Below are positions 17,246-23,937 of a DNA stretch of 64,000 nucleotides, piece after piece. The stretch lies in the NCBI RefSeq assembly GCF_003334815.1, contig NZ_QOWO01000003.1; one strand, written 5' to 3'. This DNA comes from Escherichia coli (GTDB lineage Bacteria; Pseudomonadota; Gammaproteobacteria; Enterobacterales; Enterobacteriaceae). The stretch's first letter is position 1. The number at the start of each line of letters is the position of its first letter. The translations under genes and the position numbers were made by a program. The notes beneath the pieces are model-generated. The model searched no databases and was not told the DNA's origin. It was given only the letters and a program-made list of their open reading frames with translations.

Positions 17246-18100
17246 ATGTTGTCCAAACAAATCCCGCTTGGCATCTATGAAAAAGCGCTCCCCGCCGGGG
17301 AGTGCTGGCTGGAACGCCTGCAACTGGCAAAAACGTTGGGCTTCGATTTTGTCGAGATGTCGGTAGATGAAACGGACGAGCGCCTGTCGCGCCTCGACTG
17401 GAGCCGCGAGCAGCGTCTGGCGCTGGTGAACGCGATTGTTGAAACCGGCGTGCGCGTGCCGTCCATGTGCCTTTCTGCTCATCGTCGTTTCCCGCTGGGC
17501 AGTGAAGATGACGCGGTGCGGGCGCAGGGGCTGGAGATTATGCGTAAAGCTATCCAGTTCGCCCAGGATGTCGGTATTCGCGTGATCCAACTGGCGGGCT
17601 ATGACGTTTACTATCAGGAAGCCAATAACGAAACGCGTCGTCGTTTCCGTGACGGCCTGAAAGAGAGCGTTGAGATGGCAAGCCGCGCGCAGGTGACGCT
17701 GGCGATGGAGATCATGGATTACCCATTGATGAACTCCATCAGCAAGGCGCTGGGCTACGCGCACTATCTCAACAACCCGTGGTTCCAGCTCTACCCGGAT
17801 ATCGGCAACCTCTCGGCGTGGGACAACGACGTGCAGATGGAGTTGCAGGCCGGAATCGGGCATATCGTCGCGGTACATGTGAAAGACACCAAACCGGGCG
17901 TCTTCAAAAACGTGCCGTTTGGCGAAGGCGTGGTGGATTTCGAACGTTGTTTCGAAACGCTCAAACAGAGTGGCTATTGCGGGCCGTACCTGATTGAGAT
18001 GTGGAGCGAAACGGCGGAAGACCCGGCGGCAGAAGTGGCGAAAGCGCGTGATTGGGTGAAAGCGCGCATGGCGAAAGCGGGCATGGTGGAGGCGGCATAA
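17246..18100 (+). CDS. ulaE: L-xylulose-5-phosphate 3-epimerase
   Basis: 284 aa, TIM barrel. Confidence 0.92.
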
Positions 18101-18786
18101 TGCAAAAGCTAAAACAGCAGGTATTTGAAGCCAACATGGAGCTGCCGCGCTACGGGCTGGTGACCTTTACCTGGGGCAACGTCAGCGCTATCGACCGCGA
18201 ACGCGGGCTGGTGGTGATCAAGCCCAGCGGCGTTGCCTACGAAACCATGAAAGCGGCCGATATGGTGGTGGTTGATATGAGCGGCAAGGTGGTGGAAGGG
18301 GAGTATCGCCCATCTTCCGACACCGCGACGCATCTCGAACTCTACCGTCGTTACCCGTCGCTTGGCGGCATTGTCCATACCCACTCCACTCATGCCACCG
18401 CATGGGCGCAGGCGGGGCTGGCGATCCCGGCGTTAGGCACCACGCACGCTGACTACTTCTTTGGTGATATCCCGTGCACGCGCGGATTAAGCGAAGAAGA
18501 GGTGCAGGGTGAGTACGAACTGAACACTGGCAAAGTGATTATCGAAACGCTGGGCAACGCCGAGCCGCTGCATACGCCGGGAATTGTGGTGTATCAGCAC
18601 GGACCGTTCGCCTGGGGGAAAGATGCCCACGACGCGGTGCATAACGCGGTAGTGATGGAAGAAGTGGCGAAAATGGCGTGGATTGCGCGCAGTATTAATC
18701 CACAACTCAATCACATCGACAGCTTCCTGATGAATAAACACTTCATGCGTAAACACGGTCCTAACGCTTATTACGGGCAGAAGTAG
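18100..18786 (+). CDS. ulaF: L-ribulose-5-phosphate 4-epimerase
   Basis: 228 aa from ATG overlapping ulaE stop (TAATG); class II aldolase fold. Confidence 0.92.
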
Positions 18787-18842
18787 AACACGCGCTGCGG
18801 AAATTTCCTTCCTCGGGAGATAACTGGTCTAATTCCGCAGCC

Positions 18843-18876
18843 GTTTTTCAAAAAAAGCCCCCTGAGAAGGGGGCAA
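18843..18876 (-). terminator. rho-independent terminator (yjfY; hairpin shared with ula operon end)
   Basis: gccccct-gaga-agggggc hairpin with T-run on minus strand. Confidence 0.55.
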
Positions 18877-18914
18877 AGCAAACTATGGCAATGTTTCTTT
18901 GGTTATACCTGGTG

Positions 18915-19190
18915 CTAGCGATAAATATCCGCGCTGGCGTGCATATTGCCGTTACTCCCCGGTTCCCGCATCAGAATCACGTGGTAGTACGTTGCGCCCT
19001 GCGCATCTGTCTCTTCATTTAATGCCTGACGCGCTTCGCTTTCAGTGGCGAAATTATGATTGATATAAATCACGCCTAAGCTTTGCACATCGTCCATATT
19101 TCTGGCCTGGTGGTTATTAATTTCAATGGCTGCCCATGTATTTGCACTTAGCAAAAGCACAGCCAGAAGGGCTAAAACACGGCTGAACAT
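18915..19190 (-). CDS. yjfY: DUF1471 secreted protein YjfY
   Basis: 91 aa with signal peptide; C-terminal ...ASADIYR. Confidence 0.85.
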   Translation of the reverse strand: MFSRVLALLAVLLLSANTWAAIEINNHQARNMDDVQSLGVIYINHNFATESEARQALNEETDAQGATYYHVILMREPGSNGNMHASADIYR

Positions 19191-19390
19191 AGATACCTCC
19201 TCGACGGCTGTTTTTGTGTGCTCTCCTCATGTGGTGATGGTCTGATTTAATTTTAATCACGGATGAAAAAGTTGATGGCGACCATTTCTGATGCAGTTGT
19301 TCAAAAAAACAGCATGATGAAGTGTGATGAACTTCAAATCAGCGGCTTAGTGGTTATTTGCGAAAGGGGAGATTTATTTCTGCTCTGCCC

Positions 19391-19419
19391 TTGAGTTTAG
19401 CAAGGTATGTCAGTACTAT
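19391..19419 (+). promoter_or_regulatory. candidate sigma70 promoter for rpsF operon
   Basis: TTGAGT, 17-nt spacer, TACTAT about 100 nt upstream of rpsF; motif match only. Confidence 0.3.
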
Positions 19420-19499
19420 AACGCGTCATTTTTCAGCCGACCTTTAACACGTTCCTTGCCTCCCCGGGATTCGGCTGACCCAGACAGGAGGCTGAATAA

Positions 19500-19913
<414 letters not shown>

Positions 19914-19919
19914 TTTCTG

Positions 19920-20466
<547 letters not shown>

Positions 20467-20495
20467 TCGGTCACGGTCCATTAATACGACTTTGA

Positions 20496-20957
<462 letters not shown>

Positions 20958-20977
20958 TTCGTTATTCAACGAGACGT

Positions 20978-21012
20978 AAAAACGCCGACCATTGGTCGGC
21001 GTTTTGCTTTTG
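20978..21012 (+). terminator. rho-independent terminator after rplI
   Basis: acgccgacc-attg-gtcggcgt hairpin followed by TTTTGCTTTT. Confidence 0.7.
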
Positions 21013-21068
21013 TAGCGAGCACTTGCAGATATCGATAAGGGCCACAATAAGCAGCCCTACGAAGATAA

Positions 21069-22040
21069 TTACTTAGCTGCCTGAATATCAGCCAGCATTG
21101 GGGCAAGGGCTGGGTTGTCCTTAGCGAAGTTTGCGTACATTGGCTGTACTTTCTCGATAAACGGAGCTTTATCTACCTGGTAGACTTTCACGCCCATTTT
21201 ATCCAGTTTTGCAAATTCTTGTTTCTCTTCCTCGCTCCACAAGTCTTTCATGTAGCTCATTGATTCTTTAGCTGCTTTTAATATAACTGCCTGATTTTCC
21301 TGGCTAAGTTTATCAAACGCAGCATTGCTCATCAGAACCACATCGGGAACCATAGTGTGTTCGTCAAGGCTGAAGGATTTTGCCACTTCACCGTGACGCA
21401 TGGTAGTCAGCGCCATCACGCTGTTTTCTGCCATATCGACCACACCCTGCTGTAAGGCTGTATACAACTCGCCGTAATCCAGTGGCGTCGGGTTACCGCC
21501 CATGACTTTGATCATTTCAACTGCGCCAGGGCTTGGCTGGACACGGACTTTCATGCCTTTCAGATCGTCTGGTTTCAGTACTGGTTTATTGCCATAGAAA
21601 CTGCGGGCGCCTCCATCATAAAAAGTCAGCCCGAAATAACCTTTGCTTTTCGTTGAGTCGAGGATTTTTCTCCCGATATCGCCCTGCATGACCTGATAAT
21701 AATGATCACGATCGCGGAACAAATAAGGCAGGCTAAATAATTTATAGGAATTTTCAAATGCTTCCATTTCTGCCGCATTGGTTTTTACCAGGGGAATAGC
21801 GCCAGAACGAATCAGCTCCATTGTTTCTCGTTGAGTACCCAATGTTCCATTTGGATAAATACGAATAGTAATATCACCGTTAGAGTACTCTTTGCTCTTT
21901 TTCGCAAAGAACTCCATCGCTTTATGAACAGGATGAGACTTATCCTGATTATGACTCAGTTTTAATGTCACTGCCCAGGACTGGCTTGCGGATAACATAA
22001 GAACAGCACCGATAATGCCAGCGGATACTTTTATTTTCAT
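21069..22040 (-). CDS. TRAP transporter substrate-binding protein (DctP family)
   Basis: 323 aa, signal peptide MKIKVSAGIIGAVLMLSASQSWA, DctP-like fold with conserved Arg in GGARSF. Confidence 0.8.
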   Translation of the reverse strand: MKIKVSAGIIGAVLMLSASQSWAVTLKLSHNQDKSHPVHKAMEFFAKKSKEYSNGDITIRIYPNGTLGTQRETMELIRSGAIPLVKTNAAEMEAFENSYKLFSLPYLFRDRDHYYQVMQGDIGRKILDSTKSKGYFGLTFYDGGARSFYGNKPVLKPDDLKGMKVRVQPSPGAVEMIKVMGGNPTPLDYGELYTALQQGVVDMAENSVMALTTMRHGEVAKSFSLDEHTMVPDVVLMSNAAFDKLSQENQAVILKAAKESMSYMKDLWSEEEKQEFAKLDKMGVKVYQVDKAPFIEKVQPMYANFAKDNPALAPMLADIQAAK

Positions 22041-22092
22041 AGATGTTCCTTTTCTAATAAATATGGCGGCAGGTGCCGCCAGTGAATGCGCA

Positions 22093-23394
22093 TCAGTAGC
22101 CCAGTGCTCTTGGCAATGCCATACTGATTTGCGGAATATAGGTCACCATTGCCAGCACCAATACCATCACGGCATAGAATGGCAGCATAGGTTTGATAAT
22201 TTTATTAATCGGTAATTTAGATACACTACAACCGACAAATAACACACTGCCTACAGGCGGAGTACAAATACCGATACACATGTTCAGTACCATGACAATA
22301 CCAAAGTGAATCGGGTCCATGCCCAGTTCGGTGACAACCGGTAAAAATATCGGCGTAAAAATCAGTACCGCCGGTGTCATATCCATAAAAGTGCCGATAA
22401 TCAACAGGATAATATTGATAATAAGCAGGATTATTATTGGGTTGTCAGAAATAGTGTTAAGCAAATCGAGAATCAGGAAGGGAACGTCAGCGTTTGACAT
22501 TGCCCATGACATACCCATCGAAGAACCAATTAATAACAAGACAATTGCAGTGGTAATAACGGATTCCAGAAATATTTTAGGTAAATCTTTAACTGAGATT
22601 TCACGATAAAGAACCAGTGCAAGGAAAAGGGTATAAATTACTGCAATTGCGGAGGCCTCTGTCGGGGTAAAAATACCACTTAATACACCCCCCATAATTA
22701 AAATAATCAGGAAAATACTGGGGATAGCCATCCATATCGCAACGCCAGCCTGGCGTAAAGTCGGGCGTTCTGGCTTTGGATAACCGCGACGTACCGCGAT
22801 AATACCGGCTATTACCATCAGTGCCAGACCCAGCAAAATTCCCGGAACATAACCCGCCAGGAACAGTGCGGCAATAGAAGTACCACCACTGACCAGTGAA
22901 TAGACGATTAACGTATTACTTGGTGGAATAAGCAAACCCGTCGGGGCAGAGGCAACGTTAACCGCAGTACTGAATGCCGGGTCGTAACCCTCTTTAACCT
23001 GTTGCGGATGCATGACGCCGCCCATCGCAGCCGCCGAAGCCACGGCTGAACCAGAAATTGCCCCGAACAGCATATTGGCGAGAATATTACAGTGGGCAAG
23101 TGAGCCTGGCAGACGACCGCCGAGAATACGGGCAAAGTTGATTAATCGTCGCGCTATTCCTCCATGGTTCATAATGTTGCCAGACAAGATAAAAAATGGG
23201 ATTGCCAACAACGTAAAACTATCTAACCCGGAGGCTAACTTTTGGGAAACCACACTCAATGCTGAGTTGAAATCGAGTTGTGTGGAAATTGATGCCAGTG
23301 TCGATAAACCAATGGCATAAACAATAGGTACACCTAATGCCAACATAAAAAAGAAGGCACCAAATAACACAATAATCGGTAACCAGTAATCCAT
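22093..23394 (-). CDS. TRAP transporter large permease (DctM family)
   Basis: 433 aa, highly hydrophobic multi-pass protein typical of DctM. Confidence 0.8.
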   Translation of the reverse strand: MDYWLPIIVLFGAFFFMLALGVPIVYAIGLSTLASISTQLDFNSALSVVSQKLASGLDSFTLLAIPFFILSGNIMNHGGIARRLINFARILGGRLPGSLAHCNILANMLFGAISGSAVASAAAMGGVMHPQQVKEGYDPAFSTAVNVASAPTGLLIPPSNTLIVYSLVSGGTSIAALFLAGYVPGILLGLALMVIAGIIAVRRGYPKPERPTLRQAGVAIWMAIPSIFLIILIMGGVLSGIFTPTEASAIAVIYTLFLALVLYREISVKDLPKIFLESVITTAIVLLLIGSSMGMSWAMSNADVPFLILDLLNTISDNPIIILLIINIILLIIGTFMDMTPAVLIFTPIFLPVVTELGMDPIHFGIVMVLNMCIGICTPPVGSVLFVGCSVSKLPINKIIKPMLPFYAVMVLVLAMVTYIPQISMALPRALGY

Positions 23395-23436
23395 AATTTC
23401 TCCATTCCTACTATGGTTGGTTGTTGTTTGTTATCT

Positions 23437-23937
23437 TTAGAGTGGTTGTTTAAGTTCGGTTAAAACCATATCTATGGTGTATATAATAATAAGTACACCA
23501 CTAATCGGGATGCTCATATAGATATATCCCATTTGCCAGCCTAAAGCGGGCGAGGTCTGACCTGAATCGAATGTATCCATCGTTAATAGCCCACCACCAT
23601 ATACCATAATGATGGTTGCGAAGATAATAACGATAATCTGAATACACAAAAATAAATGACGTCGGGCTTTTCCTTTCAGCATCATAGGTAGCAGGTCAAT
23701 CGCCAGATGCCGGTTTTGCCCTGCGGTGTATGCCCCACCAAAAAGTCCAAGACAAATAAAGAGCAAACGGCTGAGTTCATCTGTAAAAATACTGGGACTA
23801 GTAAATATAAATCGTGCAGCCACCTGCCACGTCACACATGCCACGATGATCGCCAAAATGGTAATGTTCAATGCTGCAAGCAGAGCATTAATAGATCTAA
23901 TTATATTTCGCATAGTGATTAACCTTTGCAATATCAT
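23437..23937 (-). CDS. TRAP transporter small permease (DctQ family)
   Basis: 166 aa, about four TM segments; start overlaps upstream stop (ATGA). Confidence 0.7.
   Translation of the reverse strand: MILQRLITMRNIIRSINALLAALNITILAIIVACVTWQVAARFIFTSPSIFTDELSRLLFICLGLFGGAYTAGQNRHLAIDLLPMMLKGKARRHLFLCIQIIVIIFATIIMVYGGGLLTMDTFDSGQTSPALGWQMGYIYMSIPISGVLIIIYTIDMVLTELKQPL

Follow-up and report, generated by a model that had tools for sequence, protein, structure and literature searches.

Gene clusters for the catabolism of sialic acids (nan) are paired with uptake systems of different families, namely NanT (MFS), SiaPQM (TRAP), SSS or ABC transporters (Severi et al. 2021, PMC8461474). A similar pairing exists in Escherichia coli at the chromosomal site between rplI and ytfB, which is described here for a stretch of 64,000 nucleotides from contig NZ_QOWO01000003.1 of the assembly GCF_003334815.1 (the window, at its full length). 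This site accommodates an accessory operon, or island, that consists of a divergently transcribed TetR-family regulator gene (tetR), five enzyme genes, the last of which encodes a fumarate-reductase-like flavoprotein (hereinafter FADox), and the genes of a TRAP transporter, dctQ, dctM and dctP, which exactly fill the stretch 21069–23937 on the minus strand. An earlier note on this DNA pointed to the high A/T content of the transporter and regulator genes compared with the host-like enzyme genes, and suggested either that the island was assembled from modules of different origin or that membrane proteins impose codon constraints of their own. The analysis reported here makes it quite probable that the AT-rich transporter end is a separately inherited cassette, joined to the enzyme genes by recombination inside the last of them, with a base composition that would have been carried along from its donors.

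As in the nan clusters, one catabolic enzyme set is combined with unrelated uptake families, TRAP or MFS, and the transporter appears to have an evolutionary history of its own. The difference is that, here, both forms segregate within a single species, at a single site and behind nearly identical enzyme genes, and the last enzyme gene contains the junction, such that about 90 codons of this gene travel with the transporter. The uptake of hexuronates, by ExuT-type MFS transporters of the ACS family or by the uronate-binding TRAP systems that belong to Uxa/Uxu clusters, is another close parallel, in that the nearest relatives of the transporters outside the island adjoin uxaC, uxuA and uxuB. 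The island itself, however, is devoid of Uxa and Uxu enzymes and, instead, encodes an SDR, a TIM-barrel protein, a crotonase, a CoA-transferase and the flavoprotein; furthermore, the MFS transporter of the island is only 48% identical to ExuT, and its DctP is 61% identical to a Vibrio protein.

Lawrence and Ochman reportedly described ‘alien' AT-rich genes of E. coli under a model of amelioration. The locus analyzed here resembles such genes in the low GC content of a segment, in its variable presence and in having relatives in other taxa, but only the distal third of the operon is involved, the change appears to be a homologous replacement with no integrase, tRNA gene or direct repeats, and the segment is not recent. 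In the E. coli pangenome, the MFS genes lgoT/mdtM and the TRAP genes siaP/siaT/dctM together with nhaK are mutually exclusive (1,882 vs 213 genomes; Beavan et al. 2023, PMC10769857). There, too, MFS and TRAP behave as alternatives and are not found together in E. coli genomes; however, the gene names and counts do not fit, almost no genomes lack both members there, compared with the 46% of genomes that carry the third allele, yjfZ, here, and that study includes no analysis of junctions or composition. The pair is therefore probably located at a site different from the rplI–ytfB locus. Non-orthologous displacement of a transporter in a catabolic operon, with a compositional scar, is a known phenomenon; for this specific locus, literature searches on yjfZ/ytfA and on rplI/ytfB/TRAP yielded no description.

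A compositional step inside the last enzyme gene

The island genes differ substantially in composition (Table 1). The TRAP genes have a GC content of 0.41–0.45 and a GC content at third codon positions (GC3) of 0.40–0.46, and the enzyme genes 0.51–0.55 and 0.50–0.57, compared with the means of 0.524 (sd 0.036) and 0.576 (sd 0.065), respectively, for the remaining annotated genes of the window; the lowest overall GC is that of tetR. Thus, the pattern that the earlier note had perceived by eye holds in numbers.

A maximum-likelihood single change-point was fitted from the SDR gene to dctP, with 300 permutations as the null. The third positions place it at 24606, with a log-likelihood ratio (LLR) of 22.0 against a permutation maximum of 7.3, and the 4-fold degenerate sites at 24633 (LLR of 30.1 against a maximum of 8.6), with the GC content of the 4-fold sites dropping from 0.650 upstream of the change-point to 0.443 downstream. 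The AT-rich domain extends 300–700 bp past 23937, into the 3' end of FADox, the last 93 codons of which (601–693) have a GC3 of 0.25–0.31. The upstream edge of the domain is inside FADox and not at 23937.

Ordinary gene-to-gene scatter of GC3 might, by chance, produce a run of low values, and three core genes of the window, yjfI (0.409), yjfL (0.458) and rplI (0.426), are indeed as low as the TRAP genes. The permutation test refutes this explanation and leaves it with virtually no probability: the LLR of 22–30 tops all 300 permutations, three adjacent genes depart from the expected GC3 with z of −4.9 (dctP), −8.3 (dctM) and −6.2 (dctQ), and the boundary falls within a junction zone that is defined independently (see below). 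The compositional pattern is real, far beyond chance.

The step is not seen in the codon adaptation index (CAI), which was calculated with the Sharp and Li weights for E. coli (as a sanity check, ribosomal proteins and ppa score 0.66–0.72). The CAI is 0.366 for dctP, 0.254 for dctM, 0.182 for dctQ (the minimum in the window), 0.28–0.38 for the enzymes and 0.259 for tetR, with a host median of 0.347, and does not separate the transporter, enzyme and regulator modules among the window genes. Of the two measures that the earlier note proposed, base composition reveals the step whereas codon adaptation does not; the mosaic lies in the former.

Alternative cassettes at the same site

The window is part of the E. 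coli chromosome: the 13 kb around the TRAP genes are 100% identical to E. coli chromosomes, with at least 80% of this segment covered in 1,450 of the 5,426 complete E. coli genomes. Three alleles occupy the site in these genomes, the TRAP cassette (1,445), an MFS cassette (1,671) and yjfZ, the K-12 arrangement (2,513, or 46%), with the enzyme operon present in about 57%. These counts sum to 5,629, so that about 200 genomes must hold two markers or a composite arrangement.

In both operon forms, the gene order is identical from tetR through the genes for the SDR, the TIM-barrel protein, enoyl-CoA hydratase (ECH) and CoA-transferase (CoAT) to FADox, and only then follow either dctQMP or the MFS gene. 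In a scan of FADox relatives, with one genome per species, E. whittamii, Escherichia sp. MOD1-EC7003, E. albertii and Entomohabitans were found to have FADox at this site, along with the tetR-to-CoAT genes wherever the contig reaches. In E. whittamii, MOD1-EC7003 and Entomohabitans, FADox is followed by a 425–426-residue MFS transporter instead of dctQMP; the E. albertii contig stops within FADox, so that the transporter end lies outside it. The MFS cassette is common to E. coli and E. whittamii, at 94.7% nucleotide identity. Judging by its sequence, the MFS protein appears to be a relative of the D-galactonate/hexuronate subfamily of the ACS family, although its TIGR00893 score of 315 bits is under the curated cut-off of 395. 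Klebsiella huaxiensis, a Jejubacter-like genome (L089) and another enterobacterium (L091) carry the TRAP form at this site. The CoA-transferase of L091 clusters with Salmonella and Klebsiella proteins, and Salmonella encodes a close homologue of this enzyme.

The K-12 pseudogene ytfA corresponds to the 3'-terminal 402 bp of tetR (window positions 30450–30852). K-12 also retains a 102-bp relic of the 5' end of the SDR gene (29802–29903), which is 81% identical to the window and 85% identical to E. whittamii. These two remnants imply that the yjfZ arrangement is derived, with most of the operon replaced.

The RefSeq annotation of the locus includes no integrase or transposase, there is no tRNA gene in 18000–33000, and no flanking direct repeats were found. 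Carriage on plasmids was considered and rejected because every full-length plasmid match is a chromosome-sized record labelled ‘plasmid'. These results speak for homologous replacement and not for the insertion of a mobile element. Thus, the locus combines atypical composition with variable presence and yet is not a classical mobile island but a chromosomal segment replaceable by recombination.

Several additional features of the site vary among strains. The rplI-proximal junction gathers insertions, such as a HipBA-like toxin–antitoxin pair (with a frameshifted hipA) between the MFS gene and rplI in strain 4/4, and copies of IS1 are found inside the MFS or TRAP genes of several strains. Some lineages have, in addition, a gene for a MaoC-like dehydratase, which is located after the MFS gene in MOD1-EC7003 and Entomohabitans and precedes the SDR gene in a Rhodocyclaceae cluster; given its absence from the E. 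coli forms, it would be an optional component of the pathway. The island copy of E. coli CP125919 (L088) contains many frameshifts and colinear patches of 30–100 bp that are identical to K-12 yjfZ within TRAP-type sequence. This copy was considered as a possible stage in the decay of the island, with pieces of yjfZ in dctM, and rejected because its features suggest a chimeric or over-polished assembly.

Recombination junctions

The TRAP, MFS and yjfZ alleles share their left boundary, the downstream edge of the rplI terminator at about 21010/21011: homology to the window ends at 21010 in K-12, at about 21010 in FORC_031 and at 21011 in strain 4/4, the latter two being E. coli of the MFS type.

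The right junction lies within FADox. FORC_031 is 100% identical to the window in the right flank, from 31550 outward, and mostly ~97–100% identical over 31100–25000, with the exceptions of a patch of 85–89% in ytfB and, in the SDR gene, a bin of 150 bp at 91%. FADox has a single difference in its first 1,020 nucleotides, but scattered differences appear from codon 341 (~24,995), and divergence reaches 18–45% from codon 461 (~24,635); the transporter genes show no homology, and 100% identity is regained at the rplI terminator (~21,010). Strain 4/4 remains 91–99% identical to the window down to FADox nucleotide 1800 (~24,215) and then drops to 55–63%. Compared with each other, FORC_031 and strain 4/4 are 71–79% alike in FADox nucleotides 1441–1800 and 91–97% afterwards. 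Over FADox codons ~601–693, the identity is 55–65% between TRAP-type and MFS-type E. coli vs 91–97% within the MFS type. Because the identity of strain 4/4 holds as far as 24,215 and only then drops, these alignments place the minimal transporter-linked cassette at 21,011–24,215. The interval 24,215–24,995 is a patchwork zone of further recombination, and the compositional change-point falls inside it. Each of the two transporter cassettes is richer in AT than the enzyme genes that accompany it, with a GC3 of 0.37–0.50 for the MFS gene and 0.35–0.47 for the C-terminal part of FADox.

The patch in ytfB (~31250–31400) stands out, at 85–89% identity, in the comparison of two E. coli strains with ~97–100% identity elsewhere in this region; ytfB is also highly divergent between genera (55–83% amino-acid identity).

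In the most probable reading, the island is a catabolic operon under TetR control, for an organic acid, and comprises two layers that differ in history. One consists of tetR and the five enzyme genes up to FADox codon ~340–600 and occupies the rplI–ytfB site in several Enterobacteriaceae. The other, formed by the last 90–350 codons of FADox and the uptake genes, would be an exchangeable cassette that is replaced by homologous recombination, with one crossover inside FADox and a second where the conserved rplI terminator ends. In the window, the cassette is the TRAP system dctQMP, and in other E. coli, it is the MFS gene; the AT-richness would then be the composition of the cassette itself.

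The different origin of modules proposed in the earlier note is borne out for the transporter, which is swapped between TRAP and MFS behind the same enzymes, with the break in homology at the GC step, but not for the regulator. In every enterobacterial locus examined, tetR adjoins the enzyme genes, and tetR together with the enzymes is ~97–100% identical between TRAP-type and MFS-type E. coli (FORC_031, strain 4/4). The gene is AT-rich in all enterobacterial hosts examined, and about half of its GC deficit is due to amino-acid composition; the other three regulator genes of the window are not AT-rich (ulaR, 0.556; ytfH, 0.632; nsrR, 0.507). Thus, tetR is co-inherited with the enzyme core, and its composition is only half explained.

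Test of a membrane-protein constraint

Permeases might look AT-rich simply because their hydrophobic residues (Ile, Leu, Phe) are encoded by T/A-rich codons, or because membrane proteins have specific codon needs. Several properties of dctM are in line with this possibility: the AT run quoted in the earlier note encodes, in antisense, the DctM stretch IILLIINIILLIIG (22396–22429, one mismatch), an A excess of 0.18 on the plus strand of dctM fits a T-rich coding strand, and the GC content at first codon positions is only 0.486.

The expected GC3 of each gene was obtained by swapping its codons for the host synonymous usage of the same amino acids, with a binomial z. The expected values are 0.626 for dctM, 0.622 for dctQ, 0.581 for dctP and 0.567 for tetR, and the observed GC3 is below all of these, with the z given above for the TRAP genes and −5.4 for tetR, so that the amino-acid correction widens the GC3 deficit of the TRAP genes rather than abolishing it. 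The GC content of dctM expected from its amino acids and host codon usage is 0.520, essentially the host mean, and amino-acid content explains only 0.004 of the GC deficit of 0.078; the deficit is therefore synonymous, and the drop at the 4-fold sites likewise counts against the constraint. Host membrane-protein genes of comparable length (ulaA, cycA, ytfF, ytfT, yjfF and paeA) have a GC3 of 0.60–0.69, and K-12 exuT has 0.61, although the short membrane gene yjfL (131 codons) is lower, at the value given above. Soluble products are AT-rich, too, both DctP, which is periplasmic and not hydrophobic (GRAVY of −0.32), and the C-terminal part of FADox. Finally, in a Rhodocyclaceae genome, the orthologous cluster of enzyme and TRAP genes is uniform, with a GC3 of 0.77–0.83 and no offset of the TRAP genes. 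The amino-acid-corrected GC3 and the 4-fold sites refute the constraint on membrane proteins, which can be considered extremely improbable as the cause of the AT-richness.

Other hosts and the age of the cassette

A different alternative is that the island has a single origin, or that the history of the cassette is irrelevant, and that its two ends, tetR with the promoter on one side and the FADox C-terminus with the transporter on the other, are held AT-rich in place. The proposed causes include weaker synonymous selection under AT-biased mutation, less GC-biased gene conversion, given that each cassette is present in ~30% of the strains, and selection for H-NS binding. Comparison among hosts yields several points in favor of this alternative or against a composition inherited from donors.

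In each host, the composition of the enzyme genes tracks that of the genome, whereas the transporter and the regulator lag behind. In K. huaxiensis, for example, the enzymes have a GC3 of 0.62–0.71, like the adjacent ula genes, compared with 0.44–0.52 for the TRAP genes and 0.46 for tetR. The AT offset of transporter and tetR recurs in five hosts, E. coli, K. huaxiensis, L089, L091 and Entomohabitans, in spite of the saturation of synonymous sites between the genera; the TRAP genes are still AT-rich, as maintenance in place would predict, too. An Escherichia lineage that is ~8% diverged (L005) shares the TRAP cassette of the window, including its low GC3, at a synonymous divergence (pS) of 0.27–0.36, compared with 0.23–0.31 for the flanks; being shared at such a flank-like divergence, the cassette is not recent. 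The MFS cassette also appears to be a long-term resident of Escherichia and yet has a GC3 of 0.50, under the expectation. Furthermore, tetR is equally AT-rich with no cassette junction detected in the strains compared, core genes of the window (yjfI, yjfL and rplI) have an equally low GC3, and the AT-rich FADox C-terminus, dctQ, dctP and tetR evolve faster at the protein level. The nearest TRAP relatives outside island-type clusters are only 55–61% identical, and no donor was found among them; inheritance of the composition from a donor is what we infer.

Maintenance in place is nevertheless unlikely, if not negligibly so. With 93–95% amino-acid identity across enterobacterial genera and a nonsynonymous divergence (dN) of 0.033, DctM is under strong purifying selection, yet its gene is as AT-rich as the neighbors; the effect is therefore regional and does not stem from relaxed selection. 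In addition, the compositional step coincides with the zone of recombination junctions, the other regulators of the window are not AT-rich, and the Rhodocyclaceae cluster has no offset. A separately inherited cassette that retains its own composition thus remains the preferred explanation, with the reservations above.

The core operon yjfI–yjfM (4533–7425) has a GC3 of 0.41–0.52, with z of −4.8 for yjfI and −4.0 for yjfL. Since this operon is as AT-rich at third positions as the TRAP genes, low GC3 alone is no safe marker of foreign DNA in the window.

Separate phylogenies of the modules, another check put forward in the earlier note, conflict with each other. In neighbor-joining trees, the enzymes group K. 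huaxiensis with L091 (bootstrap of 99%), whereas TRAP groups K. huaxiensis with L089 (100%) and E. coli with L091 (89–98%). Between K. huaxiensis and L091, however, pS is 0.32–0.40 for ECH, CoAT and FADox, compared with 0.62–0.82 for the SDR, the TIM-barrel protein, tetR, ytfB and the TRAP genes, which points to a recent intergeneric exchange of the middle of the operon between these two lineages. The tree conflict was accordingly given less weight as evidence for a separate history of the TRAP genes, because it comes at least partly from this exchange; it shows mosaicism at more than one point of the island and does not specifically mark the TRAP genes as foreign.

Possible sources of the cassettes

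The identity of DctP is 76–86% in island-type clusters and at most 61% outside. The outside matches come overwhelmingly from Vibrionaceae, Psychromonas, Aeromonas and similar taxa, and one of these belongs to a UxaC/UxuB/UxuA/KdgK/Eda hexuronate cluster with a GC3 of 0.45–0.49, like that of the E. coli cassette. The island MFS transporter shares 84% identity with that of Providencia rettgeri (GC3 of 0.35) and 81% with that of Gilliamella apis (GC3 of 0.23); in both genomes, which are AT-rich, the transporter gene adjoins uxaC, uxuB and uxuA. An Edwardsiella protein from a GC-rich genome (GC3 of 0.83), with no uxa or uxu genes nearby, likewise shows 84% identity. The identity of the island MFS transporter to those in the MOD1-EC7003 and Entomohabitans islands is only 77%. 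Thus, the company that their relatives keep suggests hexuronate uptake systems as the origin of both transporters. Because the nearest non-island members of both families serve hexuronate clusters in AT-rich genomes of Gammaproteobacteria, the cassettes were most likely recruited from such genomes and retained their composition. The two transporters would then handle the same substrate. The best matches of DctP among solved structures are the EFI TRAP binding proteins 4ovr, 4x8r, 4n8y and 4n15, described as complexes with uronates.

Outside the island, the relatives of FADox are at most 70% identical and come from Raoultella, Pantoea, Brenneria and Yersinia, followed by Rhizobiales, Planctomycetota and Lentisphaeria. 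None of the non-island FADox loci has a close relative of the island TRAP or MFS transporter beside FADox, and distant dctQMP homologues (26–55% identity) occur near FADox in about five of them; the absence of close relatives places the transporter and enzyme modules in different phylogenetic neighborhoods. The C-terminus of FADox was considered as a donor marker and rejected because it is hypervariable in all lineages (34–67% identity) and indicates no donor.

The distribution of the two forms, with both in E. coli, MFS in E. whittamii and TRAP in the ~8%-diverged lineage, invites the more speculative proposal that TRAP and MFS make up a long-lived trans-species polymorphism, possibly under balancing selection, with the FADox C-terminus physically working with the transporter (by docking, for instance) and the AT-rich ends acting as control regions bound by H-NS. 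In the strains compared, the FADox C-terminal domain is linked to the transporter type, but physical proximity alone would have the same effect, and across genera this domain is not clearly clustered by transporter type. As a whole, the proposal is a long shot.

Gene content of the locus

The features of the locus are listed in Table 1, with gene positions as annotated in RefSeq for an identical strain. Transcription on the minus strand proceeds in the order SDR, TIM-barrel, ECH, CoAT, FADox, dctQ, dctM, dctP.

Table 1. Coordinates and composition of the features between rplI and ytfB (positions in the window)
Feature	Positions	Strand	GC	GC3	Source or remark
rplI	20508–20957	+			RefSeq
rplI terminator hairpin	20979–21005	+			terminator scan
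dctP, TRAP substrate-binding protein	21069–22040	-	0.447	0.457	RefSeq
GC-rich hairpin followed by T-rich tail, in the 52-bp dctM–dctP spacer	22064–22081	-			hairpin/terminator scan
dctM, TRAP large permease	22093–23394	-	0.446	0.442	RefSeq
dctQ, TRAP small permease	23437–23913	-	0.414	0.395	RefSeq start; longest open reading frame begins at 23937
FADox, 693-residue fumarate-reductase-like flavoprotein	23934–26015	-	0.524	0.504	RefSeq
FADox codons ~601–693, extra C-terminal domain, AT-rich	23934–24215	-			alignment, composition
FADox transition zone, codons ~341–600	24216–24995	-			strain alignments; contains the change-point
FADox codons 1–340, conserved host-like core	24996–26015	-			FORC_031 alignment
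CoA-transferase, fused family I (CoAT)	26012–27553	-	0.532	0.539	RefSeq
Enoyl-CoA hydratase (ECH; crotonase)	27563–28339	-	0.505	0.537	RefSeq
Xylose-isomerase-like TIM-barrel protein	28349–29191	-	0.550	0.566	RefSeq
SDR	29201–29992	-	0.534	0.534	RefSeq
Divergent promoter region, SDR–tetR	29993–30204	.	0.373		
tetR, TetR-family regulator	30205–30852	+	0.396	0.397	transcribed divergently
ytfB	30836–31474	-			RefSeq

The subunit families identify dctPQM as a tripartite TRAP transporter, for which the uptake of a carboxylate, dependent on the binding protein and driven by an ion gradient, is predicted. DctP scores 246.5 bits with NCBIfam TIGR00787 (cut-off of 175) and 251 bits with NF037995 (cut-off of 50), and has 52 matches to DctP/SiaP proteins in the PDB with E≤1e-30; DctM scores 458 bits with TIGR00786 against the cut-off of 268. 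DctQ has a weak match to NCBIfam YiaM (36.5 bits), is named a small permease in RefSeq, and has homologues, at 69–92% identity, with PF04290 on record. The hairpin in the dctM–dctP spacer is a candidate attenuator or mRNA-stability element that could give the gene for the binding protein a different level of expression.

The names of the enzymes, derived from NCBIfam and the PDB, are generic only, and FADox has no match in the PDB at E≤1e-10. The C-terminal ~90 residues of FADox fall outside the matches to fumarate-reductase/aspartate-oxidase family models. Despite the hypervariability of this region, even among close relatives, residues ~600–693 include a conserved motif, YFEK.WP.FL.G.IY.

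Implications

The rplI–ytfB locus does not overturn the current understanding of genome mosaicism: this is ordinary mosaicism that is unusually clear here. It illustrates, however, that a compositional step visible by eye can mark a real recombination junction, in this case, to within a few hundred bases and inside a gene. The K-12 pseudogene ytfA is explained as the stump of the operon regulator. With the TRAP, MFS and yjfZ alleles at one site, E. coli offers natural swap strains in which the niche advantages that a high-affinity, binding-protein-dependent system and a proton symporter may bring to one and the same pathway can be compared. Finally, the apparent ancestry of both transporters in hexuronate clusters provides a lead to the substrate of this uncharacterized enzyme operon of E. 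coli and Klebsiella.

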